Shown here: positions 3,668-15,022 of the stretch, one piece after another
How positions within the stretch are numbered: position 1 is the first letter of the stretch
Layout of the letters: the number at the start of each line of letters is the position of its first letter
DNA from: a virus
DNA length: 64,000 nucleotides
Strand: one strand, 5' to 3'
Virus record (IMG/VR): IMGVR_UViG_3300020187_000015
Coordinates: 1 to 64,000 of that record
The notes under the pieces: generated by a model
What the model saw: only the letters and a program-made list of their open reading frames with translations
Told to the model about the DNA's origin: nothing
Databases searched by the model: none
Program-made: the position numbers and the translations under genes

Positions 3668-3955
3668 ATGTATATGTGTGTGTGGTTTATGTGTGCGCAT
3701 CGTGCGCGGGTTAAAAGAACAGCCAGCATTTTCAGCCGATCTCAAAACGGTGTCAATCTTATTCGGTATAAGATTTTTTAATAGTAAATCGATTTTACAT
3801 TAATCCTTTTAATCACATGGTGCAATGATCTACCCTATCTAATCACTACCTTTTATTTGATTTATTTCGCTCTATCCCGTTTATTTTGGGCTATTACTTT
3901 ATTTGATTTATTTTGGGCTATTATAGTTATTTGAGTTGATCTAGTTATTACGCAC

Positions 3956-3984
3956 AAAAAAGCCCTCTCTATTTGAGAGGGCTT
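3956..3984 (-). terminator. intrinsic terminator
   Basis: AAGCCCTCTC-N5-GAGAGGGCTT plus T-run. Confidence 0.85.
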
Positions 3985-4002
3985 GAGAGGGCTTAGGATT
4001 GC

Positions 4003-4806
4003 TTACGCTACCAAGCTTGCTAACTTATCCGTGTCGAGGGCTAAAACGCCTTTAGCGCGATTCTCAGCGCTTGTAACGCCATTTGTGTTGCGATAGACCT
4101 TGTGATGATTCTCATACTCAGTAACAGCGTTGAACAAATCCCATGAGTTTTGCCCACGATTGCCCTTGCCCGAAACAAAAAGCTCGCGGATTTCATCGCG
4201 AATGTTTTCGGCACGCTTAGACTCGCCCTTGACAATACGATTTAAGCGATCAGTGACGCCATCGCTAGTCAAACGAATCGCTTTGAGATCATTAGCTAGT
4301 TCAACATAGTGAGCTTGCATAGAGTCAAACGACCCAAGCGCAAGATCGATGCGCCCTTGTGAGATGCCCTTCCAGTTAGCTGTGAAGCGTGTTACGGCAT
4401 TGCCCTCTGACTTCCAGCCCATCATGCCATTAGAGCAAATCTGAACCAGCATCTGTAAACCAAAGCGATCAGAGCAAGATGAGTTAAGCGACCCGTGACG
4501 CACGATGCGGCATTCTGTATCGCGCTCGCCCAGCTTAATCGTCTTGTATGGCATAGAGATGGAATAAATAGTTCCATCAGCGCCATGACTTGAACGCATT
4601 AGTTTAATCGATGGATTAAACTCGCATTGCATTGCATTTGAGAGATCGACAAAGGGCGCAAGCAATCTGTCGAATGTTGGAATCGAGCGATCATTGCCTA
4701 CTGTCGCGCTATACTCGCCATTAATACGAATCTCTTTAAACTCTACGTTCAAAGCGTGTTCAGTGATATCGAGGGCGAGGGCTTCATTTGCATTTACGTT
4801 TTTCAT
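4003..4806 (-). CDS. DUF932/DUF945-like protein, paralogue of 1971-2774
   Basis: Same length (267 aa), collinear, same motifs. Confidence 0.75.
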   Translation of the reverse strand: MKNVNANEALALDITEHALNVEFKEIRINGEYSATVGNDRSIPTFDRLLAPFVDLSNAMQCEFNPSIKLMRSSHGADGTIYSISMPYKTIKLGERDTECRIVRHGSLNSSCSDRFGLQMLVQICSNGMMGWKSEGNAVTRFTANWKGISQGRIDLALGSFDSMQAHYVELANDLKAIRLTSDGVTDRLNRIVKGESKRAENIRDEIRELFVSGKGNRGQNSWDLFNAVTEYENHHKVYRNTNGVTSAENRAKGVLALDTDKLASLVA

Positions 4807-4945
4807 GATATGATATGTTTTATATGGTTTAATCTAGGTAACTATACGATAGCTACATTGCTCAATAGATAGATCAGTTTACCTTGTGTCAAATTAATTG
4901 CTTTAAAATATATAAAATAATTTTAGCTACCTGTTAGCCATTCAC

Positions 4946-4962
4946 TTTAGAATGATTCTAAA
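4946..4962. promoter_or_regulatory. perfect palindrome TTTAGAATGATTCTAAA (Fur-family/Irr ICE-like box); variants at 1723-1739 and 3046-3062
   Basis: Matches TTTAGAA-N3-TTCTAAA; upstream of three early promoters. Confidence 0.45.
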
Positions 4963-5111
4963 TAAGATTATCTAATACCAGTAAAATCAGATGCACATAG
5001 CTGCATGCCTATGCCCGTATATATTATTTGCATTATTTGTGAGGATTCCTGTTATTTCGATCTATTTGTGAGGATTTCCGTTATTTCGATCTATTTGTTT
5101 TATTTAGACAC

Positions 5112-5142
5112 AAAAAAATCGCTACCCTTTCGAGTAGCGATG
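5112..5142 (-). terminator. intrinsic terminator
   Basis: ATCGCTACTC-GAAA-GGGTAGCGAT plus T-run; related hairpin at ~5844-5872. Confidence 0.85.
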
Positions 5143-5151
5143 TAAATTGTA

Positions 5152-5586
5152 TTACTTAATTAACTCTTTACCCTTCTGCTTGAGGCTAACTAAACCAGCC
5201 TCTTTAACAGTTATGCAAAGCGGCTTTGAAGATGCGCTTGAGCTTGGAAGCATGATCTTGGCTTGGCTAGAAGAAACCTTTACGCCGTCAACTAAATAAA
5301 ACACTTTCATTGACTGACCCAAGTAGAGTCTCAAATAGCGATTGCCTTTGTGAGTAATAGCGTATGGATAGGATTCCCATTCGCCCCAAGGTAGGCTCTT
5401 AGGTTTGATTCCATTGTCTTTTACTTTAGATAGGTTACGATACTCAATACCTGTGCGAACGGTGCAAAGGATGACTTTAGTTATATCGTGCTGAGCAAAA
5501 GCTTTTAAAGGCTTCTTTTTAGATACGATTCTAGCAATGGCAAATGTGCCTTTGCGAAGTGTTTTTAATGCATTTAGTTTATTCAT
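5152..5586 (-). CDS. basic hypothetical phage protein, paralogue of 448-891
   Basis: Collinear high identity to 448-891. Confidence 0.85.
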   Translation of the reverse strand: MNKLNALKTLRKGTFAIARIVSKKKPLKAFAQHDITKVILCTVRTGIEYRNLSKVKDNGIKPKSLPWGEWESYPYAITHKGNRYLRLYLGQSMKVFYLVDGVKVSSSQAKIMLPSSSASSKPLCITVKEAGLVSLKQKGKELIK

Positions 5587-5885
5587 AATGACTTAGTTTT
5601 AATATAGCAGAATTGCTATAACGTATAAAATGACTATCGAAATGCTTGAGTCAAGCAAATGCAGAAAAAAAAATAAAAAAGATTCTAAATCAAATAATTT
5701 AAATTCTACCTAATCCCGTCGATTTCCACGGGTATGAATAAAGGGATTATGTTGACGGATAGACAGGATAGTTTTATTTGCTTTATTTCAGACTATTTGG
5801 GCTATCTATTCTATTTCGATCTATTTGTCTTATTTGGGCAGGAAAAAACCGCCACCCTTTCGAGTGACGGCTTAAACCATATTAC

Positions 5886-6128
5886 TTACACACTTGTCTT
5901 TACATTATAAAAATCAGCCCAAAATTTACCGTCGTTATAAAATTCATAAGCGGCTTGTTTCTCATCTTCATTTTCCTGTTTAAGAAGCCAATACTCTCTA
6001 GCGTCTTCAACGGAATTAAAATGCTCTAGTATATCTTGATCGGAAAAGCATTCGACTACCCAGTGACCACCCTCATCGTAATTGGCGAGAGCGAGTTCTT
6101 TAATTTGATTTACTTTATCTTGTGTCAT
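5886..6128 (-). CDS. acidic hypothetical early protein
   Basis: Cassette ORF with AACCACA leader and terminator. Confidence 0.75.
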   Translation of the reverse strand: MTQDKVNQIKELALANYDEGGHWVVECFSDQDILEHFNSVEDAREYWLLKQENEDEKQAAYEFYNDGKFWADFYNVKTSV

Positions 6129-6317
6129 GTGTTTTTTTGGTTATGTGGTTAATAAATTACTACTGAGCGAGTAGTATCCTATGGCGCACAACTCATGTCA
6201 ACCTTTTTTTTTAAAATAATTTGCCACCTCATCTAATGTTAAAATAGTCTTTTTGCCATTTTCAGTTACAATGAATTGGTTTAGTAGAACGTTTATACTT
6301 ATCTGCATCTATTTGTC

Positions 6318-6515
6318 TTATTTAGTATTATTTAGATTGTAACCTTTTTGCTCCCAAGCTTTCTCTTGCAAATCAATTCTTTTAACTTCTCTATTCTCTG
6401 CTATTTGTAATATTGCGAAGCAAAATAAACTGCATAGAATAGTTGATAATGATATTAAAATAATATTATTTACAATAGTATTCTTTCTAACGCTATTTAT
6501 AATTACAGTTTTCAT
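6318..6515 (-). CDS. small membrane protein
   Basis: One hydrophobic helix. Confidence 0.6.
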   Translation of the reverse strand: MKTVIINSVRKNTIVNNIILISLSTILCSLFCFAILQIAENREVKRIDLQEKAWEQKGYNLNNTK

Positions 6516-6925
6516 TAGTCTGTTTCAATTGCGTCAAGATGATTTTTATGAACCCAAACTTCGTTTACATCTTTATCGCGAACAAGACATAAGTTACCCT
6601 CTTCTTTGATGATCTCTACCCAAATAGCTTTGTTTAAAATTGCTGATTTCATTTTGTTTAATTAGGTTAGTTTACTTCGAGAGGAGAAAGGTCGAGGATA
6701 GGCTCTTCGCAATCTTCGCGAGGAAGACGCTCTACGCCCTCACGCTCAAGGCATGAGTCGATGAAGTCAGACCATTCATAGTCTTGGCGGGCGATTGCTT
6801 CCCAGTATTGACAGGAGAGGTCGTGTAGTTTGTGGTAGTTAATCATGCTTACAGTATAGGTTAAAGAAGTGGCAAGTCAAGCTTATCGCAAAGTTTTTTA
6901 AACTTTTTTAAAGAGCTGACGGCTA

Positions 6926-7252
6926 CTAAGGATAAAGGATAATCTTGGCATAGCGTTGTTCAATATCCTCAATAACCTTACGTTCGTAAGATTGAATGCT
7001 AGGTGTCCCTTCTTTGTAACCATTGCTGGTCTCGCAGTGGGTTCGGTTGCCCTTAGCATCGTATTCATTCTTCCACCAATAACCACGACTGTTCTGATAG
7101 TAGGTCTCTTTGCCGTTGGCACTGTATTCCCGCTTTCTCCAATAGCCATCGCTGTTCTCGTAGTAAGTTTGGTTGCCTTCGGCATCCCAAATCCTGATAG
7201 GGAAATCAAAATCAATCCCTAGTTCTTTGTATGTTTCGCTTAGTGGTTTCAT
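6926..7252 (-). CDS. 21-aa YYE(N/D)S..W repeat protein (YD-like), paralogue 1
   Basis: LSETYKELGIDFxFPI N-cap, repeats, GxKxGTP C-cap. Confidence 0.8.
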   Translation of the reverse strand: MKPLSETYKELGIDFDFPIRIWDAEGNQTYYENSDGYWRKREYSANGKETYYQNSRGYWWKNEYDAKGNRTHCETSNGYKEGTPSIQSYERKVIEDIEQRYAKIILYP

Positions 7253-7635
7253 AGTGCTTTTAATTTGTATTTAATTCCGTCAACTTCTACGACCTTTCCT
7301 TCGCAGGTCTTGGCTGAACGTGGTGTGCCTTCCTTTGTACCACAGCTGTTCTCGTAGTAAGTCTCGCCCCCATTGGCATCACGCTCGTACCTATCCCAGC
7401 AGCCATCGCTGTCCTCGTAATAAAGAACGCCACCATCCGCATCACGCTCCCACTTCTTCCAAGATTTATAGCTGTCCTCGTAGTAAGTAGGGTTGCCACT
7501 GTCATGACGCTCGTACCTCTCCCAGTAGTCATCGCTGTTCTCGTAGTAAGTTGCGTAGCCGTTGGAATCTTCAATTAAGATAGGGAAGCTAAAATCAATC
7601 CCTAGTTCCTTATATATTTCGCTTAGTTTTTTCAT
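7249..7635 (-). CDS. 21-aa YYE(N/D)S..W repeat protein, paralogue 2
   Basis: 63-bp DNA repeats TACTACGAG(A/G)ACAGC. Confidence 0.85.
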   Translation of the reverse strand: MKKLSEIYKELGIDFSFPILIEDSNGYATYYENSDDYWERYERHDSGNPTYYEDSYKSWKKWERDADGGVLYYEDSDGCWDRYERDANGGETYYENSCGTKEGTPRSAKTCEGKVVEVDGIKYKLKAL

Positions 7636-7639
7636 AGTG

Positions 7640-7870
7640 TTATTGTTTAGTTGATTTAGGAGTGCCTCGCTTTACGCCTGTACTGTCCTCATAGTAATCA
7701 ACGTCACCATTGGCATCACGCTCCCTCCGCCGCCAGTAGCCAAAGCTGTCCTCGAAGTAGGTTAGGTTGCCTTCGGCGTTTTTAATCTCGATAGGGAAAG
7801 TGAAGTCGATCCCTAGTTTTTTGTATGTGTCGCTTAGTTTTTTGCGAGATAGTTTTATTTGATCGTTCAT
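7640..7870 (-). CDS. 21-aa YYE(N/D)S..W repeat protein, paralogue 3 (shortest)
   Basis: Same caps, fewer repeats. Confidence 0.8.
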   Translation of the reverse strand: MNDQIKLSRKKLSDTYKKLGIDFTFPIEIKNAEGNLTYFEDSFGYWRRRERDANGDVDYYEDSTGVKRGTPKSTKQ

Positions 7871-7898
7871 GTTTGTGGTTGTGGTTTAACTAGACTGT

Positions 7899-8105
7899 TT
7901 AACGCCCTCTTGTAAATGCTACGGAGCAGTCGATATGACCTCTAACGCCCATGTATAAATAAACGCTATCGTTTGTGCCGTGTTGGCGGGCTGATAATTC
8001 AGTGCAACCACCATAAGTTTTACGCTCGACTGTTAAGCCCTTGCATTCGTTGCGAAGTTTTCGAGCGTGGTAAAGGAAGTTCTGTTTGCTTTGTGTGTTG
8101 GTCAT
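7899..8105 (-). CDS. hypothetical, leaderless
   Basis: TTGACA-N16-CATTCT-N7-ATG. Confidence 0.65.
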   Translation of the reverse strand: MTNTQSKQNFLYHARKLRNECKGLTVERKTYGGCTELSARQHGTNDSVYLYMGVRGHIDCSVAFTRGR

Positions 8106-8480
8106 GGTCAATAGAATGTTTAACTTTTTTTGATTGTCAATACCCTTTTAAAGTTTTCTTCCATAACAGAGACTTTCTTTTCTCCGTATAGTAAATCAAA
8201 CTTTTTAGATTCAACACCCATCTTGCGATTGTGGTTATAGTTCATCTGAGTCAAGAAGTCAATTGCTTCTGGTATTAGGTCTGTGGCTTTTTTCATATGT
8301 ATATAATTTACTACACAAGTGGGCTTGTCAACTTTTTTTTAAAGTTTTTTTGCACTAAAACAAACAAAACCTTTTAAATTTTCCCTCGACAAATAGTCTA
8401 GATTGTTTAAAAGCTACTGGCAATTACATATGCTTACAAGCTATTTTATTATTTCGCCTGTATCATAGTTGTATTTGAAT

Positions 8481-8726
8481 CTATTTAAGATACGGTGCTT
8501 TGACCTGGTTAATCCAAATATTTAGATTTGCCCTAGATACTTCTAAATCATCTAGTTTAAAGCAAAAGCTATTACTTATATCAGATCTATTTGAGTGTCC
8601 AAAATCTAGGTCAACTCTATTACTGCTAATATTATAGTTTAAGAGTTGCCATCCAAAATCAGTTTTCTTTAGAATCAAATCTAAAACTAATGCTTTTATG
8701 TCTTGTGGTAGTGTATCTGTTTTCAT
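8481..8726 (-). CDS. hypothetical protein
   Basis: ORF in early array. Confidence 0.6.
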   Translation of the reverse strand: MKTDTLPQDIKALVLDLILKKTDFGWQLLNYNISSNRVDLDFGHSNRSDISNSFCFKLDDLEVSRANLNIWINQVKAPYLK

Positions 8727-8750
8727 AGTAATAAAAGTTATATAGGAAAA

Positions 8751-8794
8751 GGGAAGCAGTGCAACCTAAAAACACCGCTTCCCATAACCATATG
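8751..8794 (-). terminator. 11-bp hairpin with large U/G loop and U-tail
   Basis: GGGAAGCGGUG/CACUGCUUCCC, loop UUUUUAGGUUG. Confidence 0.7.
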
Positions 8795-9016
8795 TTAACC
8801 GAAAATTCTTTCCATTATATCTTTTGTCAAATCATCTTTTTGGCGATTGAATGTCAAATCGCTTGGAGCATTTTCCGTTGCAATGCTTGGAGCATTGTCG
8901 TCAAGGCTTTTCATGGCTGTGGCATAACTAAGCTTACGTTTCTTAAGTGCAAGTTTTTTGATAAGGGCGAGACGGGCATCTTTTTGAATCTGATTCACTT
9001 GGTCAATTAATTTCAT
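8795..9016 (-). CDS. hypothetical protein (start MKLIDQ)
   Basis: AAACCACATAAACAAA leader before ATG 9016. Confidence 0.7.
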   Translation of the reverse strand: MKLIDQVNQIQKDARLALIKKLALKKRKLSYATAMKSLDDNAPSIATENAPSDLTFNRQKDDLTKDIMERIFG

Positions 9017-9121
9017 TTTGTTTATGTGGTTTATAAGATCAGAATTAATCTTATGCCATGACAATAGGTAGGTGTATAATGATTGTCAATGCCTTTTTTA
9101 ATTTTTTTTTAAAAAAAATAA

Positions 9122-9188
9122 TGGAGGTGGGTGGAGTTGAACCACCGTCTTTAAATTAAATAATTTAAATCGAAACCCTTTCACCCCC
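9122..9188 (-). ncRNA. mini-tmRNA: tRNA-like domain only, no mRNA-like/tag domain
   Basis: GGGGGUG-AAAGGGUUUCGA-[UUUAAAUU AUUU AAUUUAAA]-GAC-GGUGG UUCAACU CCACC-CACCUCC-A: 7-bp acceptor with G3.U70, A73, stemless D-loop, GAC linker, T-arm. Confidence 0.8.
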
Positions 9189-9263
9189 CTTTACTTTAAT
9201 TTATTACTATTAATAGAAGCAAGATAATTATAAATATCATATTTGATTGTATTTGCGCTAGTC

Positions 9264-9950
9264 TTACCCTATTACGAAGCCTGTTGCATCTTTTTTAGCC
9301 ATACCCTTTTGCGCTAATCCAACGACGACGTTTGAATCATCTAAGAATCGTAAATCGCTCTTATCACCGTCAATTACTTTTTTACCTTGCCAAGTCTTAG
9401 GCAATTCATTACGGAAAACGCAAGCAACGTTTCCGCCAAGCTCTAAAATAAGTTTTACCAAGTTTTCGTTTGACTCGCTGCGCGAAAAAGTCAAGTGATA
9501 GTTGCTAGGCATTTCACCTTTAGCGAATGCCATTGCACGTTTAAAATGCTTTGTATAATCGTAAAAAGTGATTTGCGGGAAAGCCTCAAAAACTGTCTTG
9601 CCTTCATGCTTAATCTTTTCCCAAGGCAAATCGGAAAGAACGTTCAAACGTATGGCAAGTTTCAAACCTTTTCGACTCGCGCTTTTTTCGGCTTTAGTAA
9701 CTTCCTCAAAAAGTTGCGTCATAAAGCCCCTCTTATCAGTGAAAAACTTTTTTGTGCGTGCAATACGTGCATCTTTAACATTAGGCATCGCGCCGCGCCC
9801 TGCTGTAAATAAGCAAGCTTCACTGCAACCTTGGCTTGCACTTGTGCAAACATTGCCAAAGCCGCCAAGGGTAAAAGGCGCAAGCTGAATTCCTAGCGTG
9901 TGCCAAGTGGTATCTTTTTCGAGTTTTGTGTTTGTGGTTAGTAGTTTCAT
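9264..9950 (-). CDS. phage Gp88-like Cys-rich protein (radical-SAM-related fold suspected)
   Basis: NVCxxASxGCxxAC, RLNVLSD, FYDYTK, NYHLTFS, DGDxSDLRFLD motifs. Confidence 0.65.
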   Translation of the reverse strand: MKLLTTNTKLEKDTTWHTLGIQLAPFTLGGFGNVCTSASQGCSEACLFTAGRGAMPNVKDARIARTKKFFTDKRGFMTQLFEEVTKAEKSASRKGLKLAIRLNVLSDLPWEKIKHEGKTVFEAFPQITFYDYTKHFKRAMAFAKGEMPSNYHLTFSRSESNENLVKLILELGGNVACVFRNELPKTWQGKKVIDGDKSDLRFLDDSNVVVGLAQKGMAKKDATGFVIG

Positions 9951-9988
9951 AATCGTTATACTGTATGTTTTTTATGGTTTGTCAAGTG

Positions 9989-10222
9989 TTAAGGAAAAAT
10001 AATTTCGCTTGCACCGTGATTAATTGCGGAAGTAATGTTTAAGCATGTTTGCGTGCTTGCGTCAATGTCAAATTGAACCCCAAGCTTAAGAAGGTTTTTT
10101 AAATCAGATAGATTAACAGTCTTCTTTCCTAGCAAGCTCTTTAAATTATCTGCTTTATCACCCGTGATATACAAGTGGTCGTTTCCGTATGATTGTTTAT
10201 GTGTTATAGTTATGTTTGTCAT
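9989..10222 (-). CDS. hypothetical, leaderless
   Basis: TTGACA-N16-CATTGT-N8-ATG. Confidence 0.7.
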   Translation of the reverse strand: MTNITITHKQSYGNDHLYITGDKADNLKSLLGKKTVNLSDLKNLLKLGVQFDIDASTQTCLNITSAINHGASEIIFP

Positions 10223-10397
10223 GATCTATAACAATGCATAGTAAAAAGCATATGTCAACACTTTTTTAAAAAACTTTAAAAAAATAATTACCTTGCAAAT
10301 AGATCAGAAAAGAAAAAACAAATACAATAATATATCTTGACTAGTTGCTTTATTTAATATTATTTAGAGTTATTTGGGGAATTGGGGAAAATGTTAA

Positions 10398-10443
10398 GCC
10401 GCCTAGTCCTAACCACAAGACTAGACGGCAACACACAACACAC
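10398..10443 (-). ncRNA. 3' hairpin element with loop UUGUGGUUAG (copy 1)
   Basis: 11-bp stem GCCGUCUAGUC/GACUAGGCGGC; loop identical to 11207-11249. Confidence 0.6.
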
Positions 10444-10460
10444 CTTGACAGAAAAAAGTT

Positions 10461-10610
10461 TTAATCTTTAGTGAAGATCATAGTGAATCGATCAGAGCCT
10501 CGAACACGTATATTGTTTACGTGTTTAAACCCTTGGGCGAGTAGATCGTCTTTCTTTCTCCAAACATCTGGCGTTGGAATAGAACTTACTTTAATTTCTT
10601 TTGTGATCAT
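10461..10610 (-). CDS. small hypothetical (49 aa, MITKEIKV...)
   Basis: Manually read ORF. Confidence 0.55.
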   Translation of the reverse strand: MITKEIKVSSIPTPDVWRKKDDLLAQGFKHVNNIRVRGSDRFTMIFTKD

Positions 10611-10640
10611 AGTGTTATGATGCAAAGGTTGATGCCGATG

Positions 10641-10988
10641 TCAAGAACTAATTTCGATTCCCGACGTTTTTATTCTGGCTGATGGGGTTTGGAAGATTGC
10701 GATACTTGGATCGTCCTTTAAAAAGAAATGAGATGATTTATATGGGTTGTAGCTAACGCCCTTGGCGGTTGACTCGTCAAATGAATCTGTTTCGTATCCC
10801 TCTACAAAAGCGTGGACATTCTTTCTCTTCTGCAACAGCACTCTTTGTCGCCCTGCTTCAGATACTTTAAAAGACGCTTCGATCAAGCAAATGGATTGAA
10901 CGTGTCTGGTTACTCTCCAGCCCTTGTCTGTCATGGTTTGGACGGAGAGGCATTTTTTGGTTAGGTTGCGATATACTCTTACTTTCAT
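10641..10988 (-). CDS. conserved phage hypothetical protein, leaderless
   Basis: VYRNL..., GRQRVL..KRKNVHAFVEG, YNPYK motifs; TTGACA-N16-CATACT-N7-ATG. Confidence 0.8.
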   Translation of the reverse strand: MKVRVYRNLTKKCLSVQTMTDKGWRVTRHVQSICLIEASFKVSEAGRQRVLLQKRKNVHAFVEGYETDSFDESTAKGVSYNPYKSSHFFLKDDPSIAIFQTPSARIKTSGIEISS

Positions 10989-11206
10989 GCTTCTCAGTAT
11001 GTCTCAGTAAGATGGTATGTCAATACCTTTTTTAAAAAAAGAATTAAAAAAATTATCTACAATATATAGTATAGTAAAACATAATTGCCACTACAACTAC
11101 AGTCCACATACATAATTCTTCTTGACCTATCATATTATTTGGGTTTATTTTGCACTAAATTGTTTTATTTGTGAATATTTCGGGTTAAATTGGATTATTT
11201 GGTAAT

Positions 11207-11249
11207 GTCGCCCCACCCTAACCACAAGATGGGACGACTACCACACAAC
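11207..11249 (-). ncRNA. 3' hairpin element with loop UUGUGGUUAG (copy 2)
   Basis: 11-bp stem GUCGUCCCAUC/GGUGGGGCGAC, covarying with copy 1. Confidence 0.6.
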
Positions 11250-11308
11250 GTTACAATATAACGAGTAACAACAGAAAGATAAAAATGTATAACAAGGTGT
11301 CTACAGTG

Positions 11309-11521
11309 TTAAATGAATCGACTTAGGACGGCAAAATCATCTTCGGATAATTCCACTATGCTTTTTAGTTTGGTATGCCTCTCATCATTGTCATCGTTGC
11401 AATCCTCCTCTATAAGTTTTCTCGCTTCAGATTCGTTGGTTGCTGAATATACATAATTGGTATGGGTTTCATATTCGCCAATAGTAATTATCAGCTCGAC
11501 GAAGTAGTTTTTTTTAGTCAT
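11309..11521 (-). CDS. acidic hypothetical (start MTKKNY)
   Basis: ORF with A/C-rich leader. Confidence 0.7.
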   Translation of the reverse strand: MTKKNYFVELIITIGEYETHTNYVYSATNESEARKLIEEDCNDDNDERHTKLKSIVELSEDDFAVLSRFI

Positions 11522-11543
11522 ACTATTTATTTGGTTGTAGGGT

Positions 11544-11690
11544 CTATTCCGATTCGTAGCCGTCAAACCAGCCGTCACCGTGCGTGTCATCGCGGCGGCA
11601 ATGGGCTTGCGCATCCTCAAGTGTCAAGCCTTTTTTAATCGTGCGGGGTGATCCGTTGAAATGGAAGCGGATTATCTTGTATGTATTCAT
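11544..11690 (-). CDS. small conserved phage hypothetical
   Basis: YKIIRF...[11 protein letters not shown]...WFDGY motif. Confidence 0.7.
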
Positions 11691-11713
11691 AGTATTTTTG
11701 GTTAGTTTGTGGT

Positions 11714-11911
11714 TTATGCGATTGATTCGCAATAGGCGAACTCCTTTGCCGCCTTGTGCGCTTGTTTAATGCTATCCGTAAATAGCACAGTTACATTTTT
11801 CCCCGCATCCGTGTCATTCATTATTACACGATAATCGTGGCGATCATTGCCAGTTGCAACTATGGCTTCCAGTCCGTCGTTGTTGTTTGTATATGTGAAG
11901 TAGTTAGTCAT
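11714..11911 (-). CDS. hypothetical (start MTNYF)
   Basis: AACCAACAACCACCAACAC leader. Confidence 0.65.
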
Positions 11912-12056
11912 TTTTGTGTTGGTGGTTGTTGGTTTTCCAGCTTGGTGATTAAGTCCTGTAGTTTGATTAAATCCTGCTCCGTAACTTCGCATGGTTCGTC
12001 AAGAAGGCAAGCTATTTCGATGGACAGATCCTTTATGATTTCAGTTGTCATAGTAT

Positions 12057-12245
12057 TCATTTGATGTGTTTAAGTATTATAGGTTCTATGATGTCAGACA
12101 CTTCGCAAAATAGATCTTGGGCTTCTTCTGTGAGACCTTCTGATCCATCCTCCCTGTCTTCCCACACAATGTGTGCGCCCATCCTGTGTTCAACAATAGC
12201 TTCAGCAATATCAGCCACAACGTGTATAAGGTTTTCTGGTTTCAT
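12057..12245 (-). CDS. acidic hypothetical
   Basis: TTGACA-N16-CATACT promoter 10 nt before ATG. Confidence 0.7.
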   Translation of the reverse strand: MKPENLIHVVADIAEAIVEHRMGAHIVWEDREDGSEGLTEEAQDLFCEVSDIIEPIILKHIK

Positions 12246-12310
12246 GATGTTGTACAGTATGTCTTAATATTCTAATATGTCAAGCAGAATTTAAATAAAC
12301 TTTAAAAAAA

Positions 12311-12409
12311 CTTAGGCAGGAATCATATTGGTATCGGGACACTATTCTAGAACTAGCTGATTCGTCTGTCTTTTAATTTGTGCCGACCGAGCGACGCACA
12401 AAACCTAAG
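12311..12409 (-). ncRNA. candidate structured RNA (~100 nt)
   Basis: CUUAGG/CCUAAG closing stem then U-run; internal UUUGUGC/GCACAAA and GAAUCA/UGAUUC stems. Confidence 0.35.
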
Positions 12410-12443
12410 CTAAATTTTTGTTTGATTACTTTTGCTGAAGAAA

Positions 12444-12785
12444 TTATAGTTCCTCCCATCCTTGTGATTTGCACATTAGTGTTGTCAGTTTTCCTTCGTG
12501 GTCGATAATCTTAACAACGTCACCAACACTTGTCGAGTAAAAAGTTTCCTTGTCTGAGCAGTTCTCCCACAAAGCCAAAAGAATTTTTTCGTGCGTTTTA
12601 GTTATAAGTTCAATCGGCGCGTTGGTTACGTGAAACAAAAGTTCAGCAAGCTTTGCTGGAATGTGCGGATAGTCGATATGCTCTTGATTAAGGCGAGCAG
12701 AAAAAACGCATTGGCGAGCGACTTCCCATTTCTGAACAAAAGGTTCATCTTTGGAGCGGTGTAGTGATAGGTTCATTATTTTCAT
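12444..12785 (-). CDS. hypothetical (S.SVGDV motif)
   Basis: Promoter TTGACA-N16-CATGAT. Confidence 0.7.
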   Translation of the reverse strand: MKIMNLSLHRSKDEPFVQKWEVARQCVFSARLNQEHIDYPHIPAKLAELLFHVTNAPIELITKTHEKILLALWENCSDKETFYSTSVGDVVKIIDHEGKLTTLMCKSQGWEEL

Positions 12786-13251
12786 TGTTTATAGTATGGT
12801 TATTTTAATAATGTGTGTTAGTTAGTTTTAAGTATCTTCAATCATGCATTGTCTGGAGTGATTGTCAAACTTTTTTTTGAATTCTTTTTCAGCCACAATG
12901 TTCTAACTACCAACGGATTATCTCCGCACGATGGCAACATTCGTTTAAATGTCTCCCAACTCGGCTTTGGAGAGCCTAAAGATTCCCATGATTTTATTCT
13001 TTCTTTTGTATCCATGAGCGTATGTCAAATGTTTTCTTTATGTTTTTGGGTTGGTTGGTTGGTTGGTGTTAAGTTAAATGATCTGGAACTCGGTGCAGTC
13101 GAGCCACCAAGGACTCATGATAAAAACATCACCATTCTCATCGACAAGTTCGCCGTCTTTGATGGTGACGTGAGACCCTTCCTCCCAATCTGGAAGGCGG
13201 ATCCTTTTTTCTTCACGCATAGCGGAGTGGGCTTCGTGTATATTCATTTTA

Positions 13252-13458
13252 TTATTGGTTGGCTATACGTAGAAATTCGGAGGCTAGATCTTCGATCAGA
13301 TCCCAGATGCCGTGTGGCTCCCACTCTTCAAATGGTTCCCACCTGTTGTCTCGGATGAAGTCCGTCACGTCTTGCTCGTCTAGCTCGTCAAAGTTCGATG
13401 GTAGCTCATCGGTTAGGTAGAATTTTGATGCGGTTATGTATGCTTCTGTTTTATTCAT
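13252..13458 (-). CDS. acidic hypothetical, distant paralogue of 15449-15727
   Basis: AS..L...P.N.......FI..N...P pattern shared. Confidence 0.7.
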   Translation of the reverse strand: MNKTEAYITASKFYLTDELPSNFDELDEQDVTDFIRDNRWEPFEEWEPHGIWDLIEDLASEFLRIANQ

Positions 13459-13473
13459 AATGTTTTGGTTTGG

Positions 13474-13938
13474 TTATCGTAGGATCATTACTCCATTTCC
13501 TTCACATTTGCATTCGTAGTTAGGTTCGTCAAGCTCTTGGCAATCCTCGCACTCTTTTATTTCAAAGTCTGTTTCGTTGCCATCTTCATATTCACCTGCA
13601 AACATATATCCCTCGTCTTGGTATTCGGCTTTGACTTTAAAGCCGCGCTTAACCAATTCATCGAAGATAGGAGTGATAGGACTCCAAGCAGTAGCAAAAG
13701 TTAAATTGAGGTTTATGTCGTCTTCATATTCCACAAACATATCAGTCACATCCCACTTACTGCCCCAATTCGTTATATTCCAACAATACCAATTATCTTC
13801 TTCGGCTGCAGGTCTTGGTATAATAGCGTTGCATAAGCTGTTGTTGTTTTCAATAGCTCTCGAAACCAGAGCGCTGAACTCTTTGATTTGTTCTTTAGAT
13901 CCTTCTACGTTTAATGTTGTGTGACACCAGTTTGGCAT
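13474..13938 (-). CDS. YubB/DUF1281-like ferredoxin-fold protein
   Basis: MPNWC start, WYxWNxxNWGSKW and F.TAWSP motifs. Confidence 0.75.
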   Translation of the reverse strand: MPNWCHTTLNVEGSKEQIKEFSALVSRAIENNNSLCNAIIPRPAAEEDNWYCWNITNWGSKWDVTDMFVEYEDDINLNLTFATAWSPITPIFDELVKRGFKVKAEYQDEGYMFAGEYEDGNETDFEIKECEDCQELDEPNYECKCEGNGVMILR

Positions 13939-14003
13939 AATATTTTCCTTTTTGTATTTTTGATTAGTTTTATTGTGGGTTAAGACTGAAACATAGATAA
14001 TTA

Positions 14004-14417
14004 TTATGCTATGTCAACAGTTTTCTTTGAAACTCTTACAATTAATGTAATTCTGTGACATCGCCCTTCGCTCCAGTCATGAATCTCTCCACCCCTTACG
14101 GCAAAGACATGACCTCTAACGAAAACGAGAAATACTCCCCTAGATGGGATAAGGGGTTTAAGGCTTCTAATGGTCTTAGCCTTATTCATCTTATGATCCC
14201 ATACATCAGTGCAAACAAAACCCTTTGATTTAATTGCTGGGAAAGTTATTCTATATGTATTGGTTCGTCCTCGGAAACGTCTCCCAAATTTCTTAGCAAG
14301 GTTCCATGCATCCTTATACTGAATGCCGCAAACGACCGCTATAGCTTTAACGGCGCAGTCATTGGTTTCGTTGATTTTTTCAGATTGTGTTTTTAGGTGT
14401 TGGTATAACTTGGTCAT
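14004..14417 (-). CDS. conserved phage protein with DCxVxAIA..H motif (papain-like suspected), leaderless
   Basis: NDCAVKAIA...GHVFAV; TTGACA-N16-CATACT-N7-ATG places start at 14417. Confidence 0.65.
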   Translation of the reverse strand: MTKLYQHLKTQSEKINETNDCAVKAIAVVCGIQYKDAWNLAKKFGRRFRGRTNTYRITFPAIKSKGFVCTDVWDHKMNKAKTIRSLKPLIPSRGVFLVFVRGHVFAVRGGEIHDWSEGRCHRITLIVRVSKKTVDIA

Positions 14418-14489
14418 GGTTACAAGTATGCATACCATGATTCCTTTGTCAATTCTTTTTTAAATTTTTTTAAATTTTTTTAAATCATG

Positions 14490-14709
14490 CTTTTTGTATT
14501 GACCCCTACGGAAAACTATACTTTTTGTATTAAACCCCTATGAAAAGTAGACCCTTATAGGGTAAACACCCTATTATTTGTCTTTATTTCGGTTTATTTG
14601 GCGTTATTTCAGACTATTTGGCGTTATTTCGGGTTATTTCAGACTATTTGGCGTTATTTCGCGCTATTTTCGCTTGACTTTTTGTATTTACCCCTATGAA
14701 AAGTAGACC
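14490..14709. repeat. ten TATTT units at exact 10-bp period (14575-14669) flanked by three ~30-bp direct repeats TTTTTGTATT..CCCCTATGAAAAGTAGACC
   Basis: Directly visible. Confidence 0.95.
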
Positions 14710-14710
14710 A

Positions 14711-15022
14711 TTAATCTACGCTAATATTCCTAACTACCTTAGTTACAGCGACTTGTCGATTTTTGTATTTATGGTAGCAAAATATCATTGCGGCTGATGC
14801 AATTCCGCTTAAAATAAAGTTGACTTGAAGCCATAAATCTAATCCTACCTTTAATAGGGTATAAGTCAGTGCGCATACATATCCTAGCAGACATATATAA
14901 TATACGCTAACACTCACGTTGTCAACGTCTTTTGTAATAATAGTCTTGACTATTTGCGGTATAAAACACAGCGCAAAGCAAGCTGCATAAATTAATCCTA
15001 GTGTGTTTGTTATCAGTTCCAT
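14711..15022 (-). CDS. PQ-loop / SemiSWEET-like 3-TM membrane protein
   Basis: FIPQIVKT...VS motif, three hydrophobic helices. Confidence 0.75.
   Translation of the reverse strand: MELITNTLGLIYAACFALCFIPQIVKTIITKDVDNVSVSVYYICLLGYVCALTYTLLKVGLDLWLQVNFILSGIASAAMIFCYHKYKNRQVAVTKVVRNISVD

Follow-up and report, generated by a model that had tools for sequence, protein, structure and literature searches.

A phage-encoded tmRNA tRNA-like domain in which a hairpin takes the place of the tag-coding part

Position and structure of the RNA

The DNA analyzed in the current work (hereafter the window) corresponds to the first 64 kb of an IMG/VR virus record (IMGVR_UViG_3300020187_000015), which in its entirety comprises 105,788 bp and has a CheckV completeness of 62%. 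The record encodes rIIA, a DnaE-type polymerase, a ribonucleotide reductase, a DnaB-type helicase and an SbcD-like exonuclease, the polymerase sharing ~30% identity with its counterparts in Streptomyces, Listeria and Pseudomonas phages. Comparison of the region and of the RNA described below with 50,697 phage records, performed with megablast and blastn, revealed no relatives and returned only short tRNA T-arm matches, and no close cultured phage was found. No integrase was detected in the 105.8-kb record, and the phage is apparently lytic.

Between 3.7 and 15 kb, the minus strand of the window contains a series of early cassettes with about ten to a dozen perfect TTGACA boxes at a spacing of 16-17 nt (box positions 14925, 14452, 14017, 12868, 12283, 11023, 10644, 9985, 9089, 8331, 6201 and 3756). 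The associated -10 boxes (window positions 3700-15000) are variable, often conforming to CAnnAT or CATACT, and in several cassettes the ATG is located only ~6-7 nt after the -10 box (for example at 9950 and near 10610), so that the early transcripts may be leaderless. One of these cassettes carries a gene of the GP88 family (PF17338; 9264-9950, minus strand, 228 aa, Pfam score of 160.8 bits), whose likely promoter TTGACA-16 nt-CAGTAT (9958-9985, minus strand, with TTGACA at 9985-9980) immediately precedes the ATG at 9950. The RNA which is the subject of this work starts 75 nt from the end of the GP88 gene, with no terminator between the two, and it occupies the place where other cassettes carry a terminator hairpin. 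The unit holding the RNA ends at the promoter of the next cassette (TTGACA-17-TATTGT, 9061-9089, minus strand), which is kept in L008, one of two closely related loci (L008 and L147) retrieved from IMG/VR.

In its predicted mature form the RNA comprises 67 nt (9122-9188, minus strand), extending from G1 to the discriminator A73. The acceptor stem consists of a 5' strand GGGGGUG (9182-9188, with G3 at 9186) paired with a 3' strand CACCUCC (9123-9129, with U70 at 9125), followed by the discriminator A which is read directly from the sequence at 9122. The 5' strand of the stem leads into a stemless, unpaired D-loop analogue AAAGGGUUUCGA (9170-9181) containing the GG and UUCGA motifs of tmRNA, and its aligned counterpart in the Infernal RF00023 alignment is the tmRNA consensus GAucuGGaUUCGAC. 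The sequence and its fold then define an 8-bp all-A/U hairpin, UUUAAAUU-AUUU-AAUUUAAA (9150-9169), representing a stump of helix 2a, while both the sequence and the RF00023 alignment identify the GAC linker (9147-9149) and a perfectly paired T-arm GGUGG-UUCAACU-CCACC (9130-9146), all of these elements being located on the minus strand. UUA is found where CCA would be expected (9119-9121), directly followed by a run of eight T's (9111-9118) and then by nine A's. This 3' trailer (9111-9121) is the probable end of transcription; a consensus scan detected no separate terminator hairpin 3' of the RNA, and a T-run of 7-8 nt is also present 3' of the RNA in L008 and L147. The locus had previously been described by a model from its letters and open reading frames (the sequence-only reading), and re-reading of the minus strand returned identical letters, stems, D-loop, GAC linker and T-arm, together with the non-encoded CCA and the downstream T-run which that reading had reported.

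The RNA folds into the expected three-helix shape with a free energy of -20.8 kcal/mol (z of -2.3 relative to shuffled sequences), the all-A/U 8-bp helix being weak. No ORF of at least 40 aa overlaps it.

Assignment to the tmRNA tRNA-like domain

Two programs had been proposed by the sequence-only reading for verification of its assignment, namely Infernal with the Rfam tmRNA family RF00023 and ARAGORN, of which the former supported the assignment and the latter returned no call at default settings. The RF00023 match (9119-9188) has a score of 57.7 bits (E of 5e-20), which is above the gathering score of 47 bits. The alignment spans model positions 1-374 and includes both ends of the model, every consensus position of which is matched, whereas 306 internal positions are skipped at the 4-nt loop of the hairpin. 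As a control, five bacterial genomes were searched in the same manner, with ordinary tRNAs reaching 20-35 bits and the true tmRNAs of these genomes 150-172 bits. ARAGORN called nothing and reported no tag peptide in the window or in the whole 105.8-kb record; with a relaxed threshold it placed a 'tRNA-???' with a 2-nt 'anticodon' at this position and otherwise reported noise. Such genes are missed entirely by ARAGORN, and in Rfam they surface only as odd, internally deleted 'tmRNA' matches.

The skipped model positions comprise the resume codon, the tag reading frame and the stop codon, all of which are absent from the RNA, as are PK1-PK4 and helix 5, since only 20 nt separate the D-loop analogue from the GAC linker. 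The helix 2a stump stands in the place of ~300 nt of pseudoknots and tag frame. Assignment as an ordinary tRNA (RF00005), or specifically as tRNA-Ala, was rejected, as the RNA has no cloverleaf, D-stem or anticodon arm and the tmRNA model outscores the tRNA model in clan competition. It does have in common with tRNA-Ala the G3.U70 pair, A73, the T-arm and a 7-bp acceptor stem, but instead of a D-stem and an anticodon arm it possesses 8 bp closed by a 4-nt loop with no anticodon.

The possibility that the RNA is one half of a two-piece tmRNA, which the sequence-only reading had named as a result that would speak against it, was likewise rejected. Both acceptor strands reside on a single hairpin-closed 67-nt molecule, and therefore no strand is left to pair with a second RNA; furthermore, no coding piece was found in the record, and the permuted-tmRNA families (alpha, beta and cyano type) have no match in the window or in the rest of the record. 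The RNA is the only one recognized in the 105.8-kb record (~62% complete) by Rfam, by ARAGORN or by the covariance model R1 described below, which also argues against it being half of a two-piece tmRNA. The sequence-only reading had described it as sitting alone, and this holds within the record; however, a relative (G033, which contains L147) carries a six-tRNA array (Ser-GCT, Ser-TGA, Thr-TGT, Glu-TTC, Pro-TGG and Met-CAT; L198, G033:C1:16500-17600) ~10.6 kb from its own copy of the RNA, and the region homologous to that array falls just past the left end of the present contig. The present phage may, judging from this synteny, carry tRNAs outside its assembled contig.

Taken together, these results support the assignment of 9122-9188 as a phage-encoded tmRNA tRNA-like domain (TLD) in which the tag-coding part is replaced by a hairpin, here referred to as a mini-tmRNA, and the structural reading made earlier from the letters is borne out by the match to RF00023, by the covariation observed among 45 homologues (see below) and by the lack of a second tmRNA piece in the record.

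Comparison with known tmRNAs

Phage tmRNAs of the TLD-only type are already published, although little studied, and the window RNA is a further member of this type. The published case is the 'TLD only' (CDS-less) tmRNA of mycobacteriophage DS6A (tmID 11587; JN698994, 28478-28560), as recorded by Hudson, Lau and Williams 2014 (PMC4131195) and Mao 2009. Just as the window RNA, it is a phage-encoded complete TLD with G3.U70 and A73 and with no tag frame or pseudoknots, in which a short helix of tens of nt connects the two halves in the standard, unpermuted order; neither phage encodes an SmpB, and both RNAs match R1. The DS6A RNA differs in being 83 nt long, with a longer GC-rich helix and an inner hairpin, as opposed to 67 nt and a plain 8-bp A/U hairpin, and in scoring 43.2 bits on RF00023, below the cut-off of 47, as compared to 57.7 bits for the window RNA. 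The phages themselves are unrelated, DS6A being a temperate actinophage, whereas the window phage is large and uncultured, with a DnaE-type polymerase and rIIA and with no integrase found. No broader description of the TLD-only class in phages was found beyond DS6A in the literature searched.

Bacterial tmRNA (SsrA) shares both ends with the window RNA, i.e. 5' GGGG..GA...GG.UUCGA and 3' GACG-T-arm-acceptor-A, but contains ~300 nt more, which specify the resume codon, tag frame, stop codon, four pseudoknots and helix 5. In the absence of a tag frame, templated tag addition by the window RNA is impossible. Full-length and two-piece phage tmRNAs (those of Bxz1-type mycobacteriophages, Bacillus phage G, Melnitz and pelagimyophages) are likewise phage-borne, ssrA-derived and located in the early region (PMC4131195, PMC9004378), yet they retain the tag frame, while the present record contains neither a second piece nor a coding part. 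The CDS-less organellar tmRNAs, either mitochondrial or encoded by ~65-bp plastid genes of Mallomonadaceae, also consist of approximately the TLD only, with SmpB being encoded elsewhere; each is the organelle's only tmRNA and a presumed rescuer (PMC11915505). A full host tmRNA is presumably present in cells infected by the window phage, which would make the phage RNA a competitor, unlike the organellar tmRNAs.

TLD-only RNAs in IMG/VR and covariation

In order to retrieve homologues, IMG/VR was first scanned with a pattern in which only the 5' motif and the T-arm were fixed, U70 and A73 being left free. All ten loci obtained in this way continue as NNNCUCC-A, that is, with U70 and A73. A second, looser scan yielded at least 59 complete TLD-only genes, at least 43 of which are unique, the other matches listed being fragments from the 3' part of full-length or permuted tmRNAs. 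When IMG/VR was then scanned exhaustively, in two rounds, with a strict pattern of 28 bases, 24 and 53 contigs were identified, in total 77 with the same architecture. This number is a minimum, since neither DS6A nor a variant, L253, conforms to the pattern. The latter (L253:1072-1138, plus strand) is a short-form mini-tmRNA which scores 53.5 bits on R1 and lies outside the strict patterns; its 8-bp hairpin has a UUUG loop, CCA is encoded, and the first pair of the T-stem is A-U (GACA as compared to GACG).

Among the 43 unique matches listed, the 16 short forms (56-67 nt) have a plain hairpin as does the window RNA, and the 27 long forms (73-82 nt) possess an inner hairpin; CCA is encoded in 25 and not encoded in 18. 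Many long forms have in common an inner hairpin CCGCAUGCGG, or close variants thereof, inside helix 2 (alignments A1 and A2), and this recurrence in the alignments suggests a second conserved element that is missing from the short forms, including the window RNA.

Covariance model R1 was based on 45 sequences (the window RNA, the 43 unique matches and DS6A) realigned to R1. The window RNA aligns end to end with DS6A and the 43 other unique sequences under this model, with a score of 72.2 bits. Across the 45 sequences, 99.2% of cells pair, as compared to 46-61% in slid controls, and 11 of the 17 pairs exhibit double changes; the covariation score is 0.60, versus 0.14 in shuffles, with none of 500 shuffles reaching 0.60. 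Acceptor positions 5-7 covary across the family, although acceptor positions were partly fixed by the sequence selection. Helix 2 and T-stem positions 2-3 had been left free in the patterns: all five modelled pairs of helix 2 covary, with a closing pair that is C-G in 37 sequences and U-A in eight, and T-stem positions 2 and 3 each display 100% pairing, with four pair types. The G3.U70 pair is present in all 45 sequences and A73 is invariant, as are T16, G18 and A19 of the D-loop analogue (alignment A1). Thus the homologues that the sequence-only reading had suggested collecting exhibit compensatory changes in helix 2 and the T-stem and no uncompensated decay, and the mini-tmRNA structure is kept by selection.

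In the records carrying these RNAs (carrier records), the RF00023 cut-off is exceeded in 40 of 41, and none of these 41 contains a full-length tmRNA. The presence of at least 77 contigs together with the covariation indicates that the TLD-only class is broad and under selection, and this makes a comparative and biochemical study worthwhile. The TLD could not be used to name a host, being too conserved when compared with the tmRNAs of Verrucomicrobia and Bacteroidota. A scan of genome contigs with the 5' 17-base motif returned 47 loci, 46 of which are chance matches in GC-rich DNA, the single true locus (L045) being the full tmRNA of an unclassified MAG.

A similar picture emerges from two close relatives. 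The L008 RNA differs from the window RNA by one loop base (98.5% identity) and the L147 RNA by one D-loop base and one U-A to U.G change (97% identity), and the identity of the flanking intergenic DNA amounts to 92-93% in L008 and 70-75% in L147. The block consisting of GP88, the RNA and the next gene is retained in these relatives, while the rest of the early region is shuffled or mosaic.

These data bear directly on whether the RNA is non-working, being either what is left of an ssrA gene captured from the host or an attP site for integration into the host tmRNA gene. Phages which integrate into ssrA do carry the ssrA 3' end (PMC10865867, PMC9004378), and in two temperate carriers, G037 (L158) and G040 (L163), the mini-tmRNA is situated within ~0.3-1.2 kb of a tyrosine integrase. 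Nonetheless, a remnant or attP site would not account for the presence of the 5' half with perfect pairing, for the compensatory changes in helix 2 and the T-stem, or for an RNA that is far better conserved than its flanks; in addition, the 105.8-kb record contains no integrase and DS6A integrates at tRNA-Lys rather than ssrA. This explanation was rejected as largely refuted by the covariation, the conservation relative to the flanks and the lack of an integrase, and its residual probability is close to negligible. The integrase neighbours in G037 and G040 raise the separate question of whether some members of the family serve in, or derive from, ssrA integration.

Expression signals and neighbouring genes

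The sequence-only reading had suggested a private promoter for the RNA, TTGCTT-N18-TAAAGT. The letters do exist (9193-9222, minus strand), but this weak candidate fails a sigma-70 scan, its -35 box is not preserved in L147, and it differs from the promoters of adjacent cassettes with their perfect TTGACA, a box which the RNA itself lacks, so that a private promoter is not supported. The arrangement with GP88 upstream is the same in L008 and L147. Considering that no terminator separates GP88 from the RNA and that the RNA lies where a terminator hairpin is found in other cassettes, the RNA more likely rides on the GP88 transcript, presumably from the GP88 promoter, than on a transcript of its own.

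This linkage does not extend to the family as a whole. GP88 is encoded in nine of 42 carrier records and a mini-tmRNA lies within 5 kb at only three of 80 GP88 loci; GP88 was for this reason rejected as a general functional partner. Clustering of neighbours across carriers revealed no neighbour gene that recurs from one lineage to another and no conserved partner gene pointing to a pathway; the RNA of one small-phage group is placed after DnaB and ERF genes. GP88 itself belongs to a family of more than 3,400 proteins (PF17338), many from Tara and other marine samples, with three invariant cysteines (C35, C42 and C46). Its predicted model has a pLDDT of 86, with weak fold matches that are TIM-barrel-like, and a PDB sequence search with GP88 returned no match; the protein may be an enzyme that binds a metal or a cluster.

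Downstream of the RNA, the 5' leader of the next gene contains GCAUAAGAUUAAUUCUGAUCUUAUAAA (9020-9050, minus strand), which is identical in L008 and L147, while the rest of the leader varies. This block comprises a hairpin of 7 bp (AUAAGAU/AUCUUAU) and, between the hairpin and the start codon immediately downstream, AACCACA.

Proposed function in the infected cell

The TLD is the part of tmRNA that is charged by alanyl-tRNA synthetase (AlaRS) and bound by SmpB and EF-Tu, and a solved structure (PDB 4V8Q) shows the A site of a non-stop ribosome occupied by the TLD together with these two proteins (PMC8012679). No SmpB gene is present in the 105.8-kb record or in 42 carrier records, and therefore the mini-tmRNA depends on host factors; since CCA is not encoded, its activity also requires host 3' processing. 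The record furthermore contains no gene for an RF-1-domain protein or ArfB, for Pth or for a CCA-adding enzyme.

Based on the conserved identity elements and on published work on similar RNAs, the mini-tmRNA probably interferes with the ribosome-rescue and protein-tagging system of the host, and its action as a tag-less competitor of host tmRNA is the best reading, one that we consider reasonably probable. The mini-tmRNA would be produced by early transcription of the GP88 cassette, at whose 3' end it lies, and freed by an RNase P cut, after which its 3' end would be trimmed and CCA added by the host enzyme. It would then be charged by the host AlaRS and bound by host SmpB and EF-Tu, and would in this form compete with host tmRNA for SmpB and for stalled ribosomes, the outcome being that the tagging of unfinished proteins for degradation is lowered or blocked during infection. 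In the account of Mao 2009 given in PMC4131195, a DS6A-like molecule strongly inhibited tmRNA in E. coli whether or not it could be charged, perhaps, according to the explanation offered there, through titration of SmpB; the same is restated in a 2025 database paper (PMC11915505). The titration of SmpB which the sequence-only reading had put forward for the window RNA agrees with this literature on a similar molecule, and would apply here by analogy. No infection experiment on a TLD-only phage tmRNA was found in the literature searched.

Some phages grow worse without trans-translation, and the gain from blocking this process is for that reason not obvious. Should the RNA indeed act as a competitor, it would demonstrate that phages interfere with ribosome rescue. 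Almost all bacteria possess the tmRNA-SmpB system, which is under study as a drug target, and under the same proviso a natural 67-nt RNA made by a phage would constitute a ready-made inhibitor scaffold.

The conserved charging and SmpB-binding elements would serve equally well in a productive, tag-less form of rescue, in which the alanylated mini-tmRNA, with host SmpB, takes over the nascent chain and drop-off follows with Pth or a release-type factor; ribosomes would in that case be freed while phage proteins remain unmarked for proteolysis. Rescue of this kind has been proposed for the CDS-less organellar tmRNAs; those that co-occur with SmpB, reported from mitochondria and more recently from plastids, are presumed to aid with incomplete mRNAs (PMC11915505). 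The A-site complex mentioned above (PDB 4V8Q, PMC8012679) also speaks for this reading. We nevertheless regard tag-less rescue as unlikely, given that release would rely wholly on the host (the record having no ArfB/RF-1-domain or Pth gene), that an empty mRNA channel after translocation again amounts to a non-stop complex, and that the sole experiment on such an RNA reported in PMC4131195 resulted in inhibition and not in rescue.

The early region in which the mini-tmRNA is located is rich in small genes of unknown function, a setting in keeping with an anti-defence decoy that, instead of acting on trans-translation, soaks up or misleads a nuclease cleaving tRNA or tmRNA, or an SmpB-like RNA-binding domain of a restriction-type system. 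SmpB-like domains occur in the predicted RNA-targeting CoCoNuT defence systems (PMC10542128), and t(m)RNA fragments are used by a phage anti-CRISPR (PMC11662646). However, the mini-tmRNA has no linked defence or anti-defence gene, and the strict G3.U70 and A73 and the whole elbow, which point to real charging and SmpB binding, would be needless in a nuclease decoy, leaving this explanation with a rather low probability.

Alanine identity elements in an RNA with no anticodon could also suit an alanine donor acting outside the ribosome, for a tRNA-dependent transferase involved in cell-wall, lipid or peptide modification. tRNA-dependent aminoacyl transferases accept mimics of the acceptor/T-arm. 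Such a role is very improbable, as no transferase gene of this kind adjoins the mini-tmRNA in any lineage, while the D-loop analogue and GAC linker are specific to tmRNA and not generic to minihelices.

Returning to competition with host tmRNA as the preferred reading, a more speculative extension may be mentioned, to which we attach only a small likelihood. Beyond serving as a passive sponge for SmpB, the mini-tmRNA could operate as a template-free tailing device that adds one alanine per round to the nascent chain and leaves a new non-stop complex, so that repeated rounds, or a final round carried out by a host factor, would generate short C-terminal Ala or Ala-Ala tails; or else it could disarm a defence that senses or uses tmRNA-SmpB. 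If tailing were to occur, the phage could reprogramme which unfinished proteins are destroyed and which are spared. Some tmRNAs found in nature have a tag consisting solely of Ala-Ala (PMC11915505), and a minimal alanine tag is thus not absurd.
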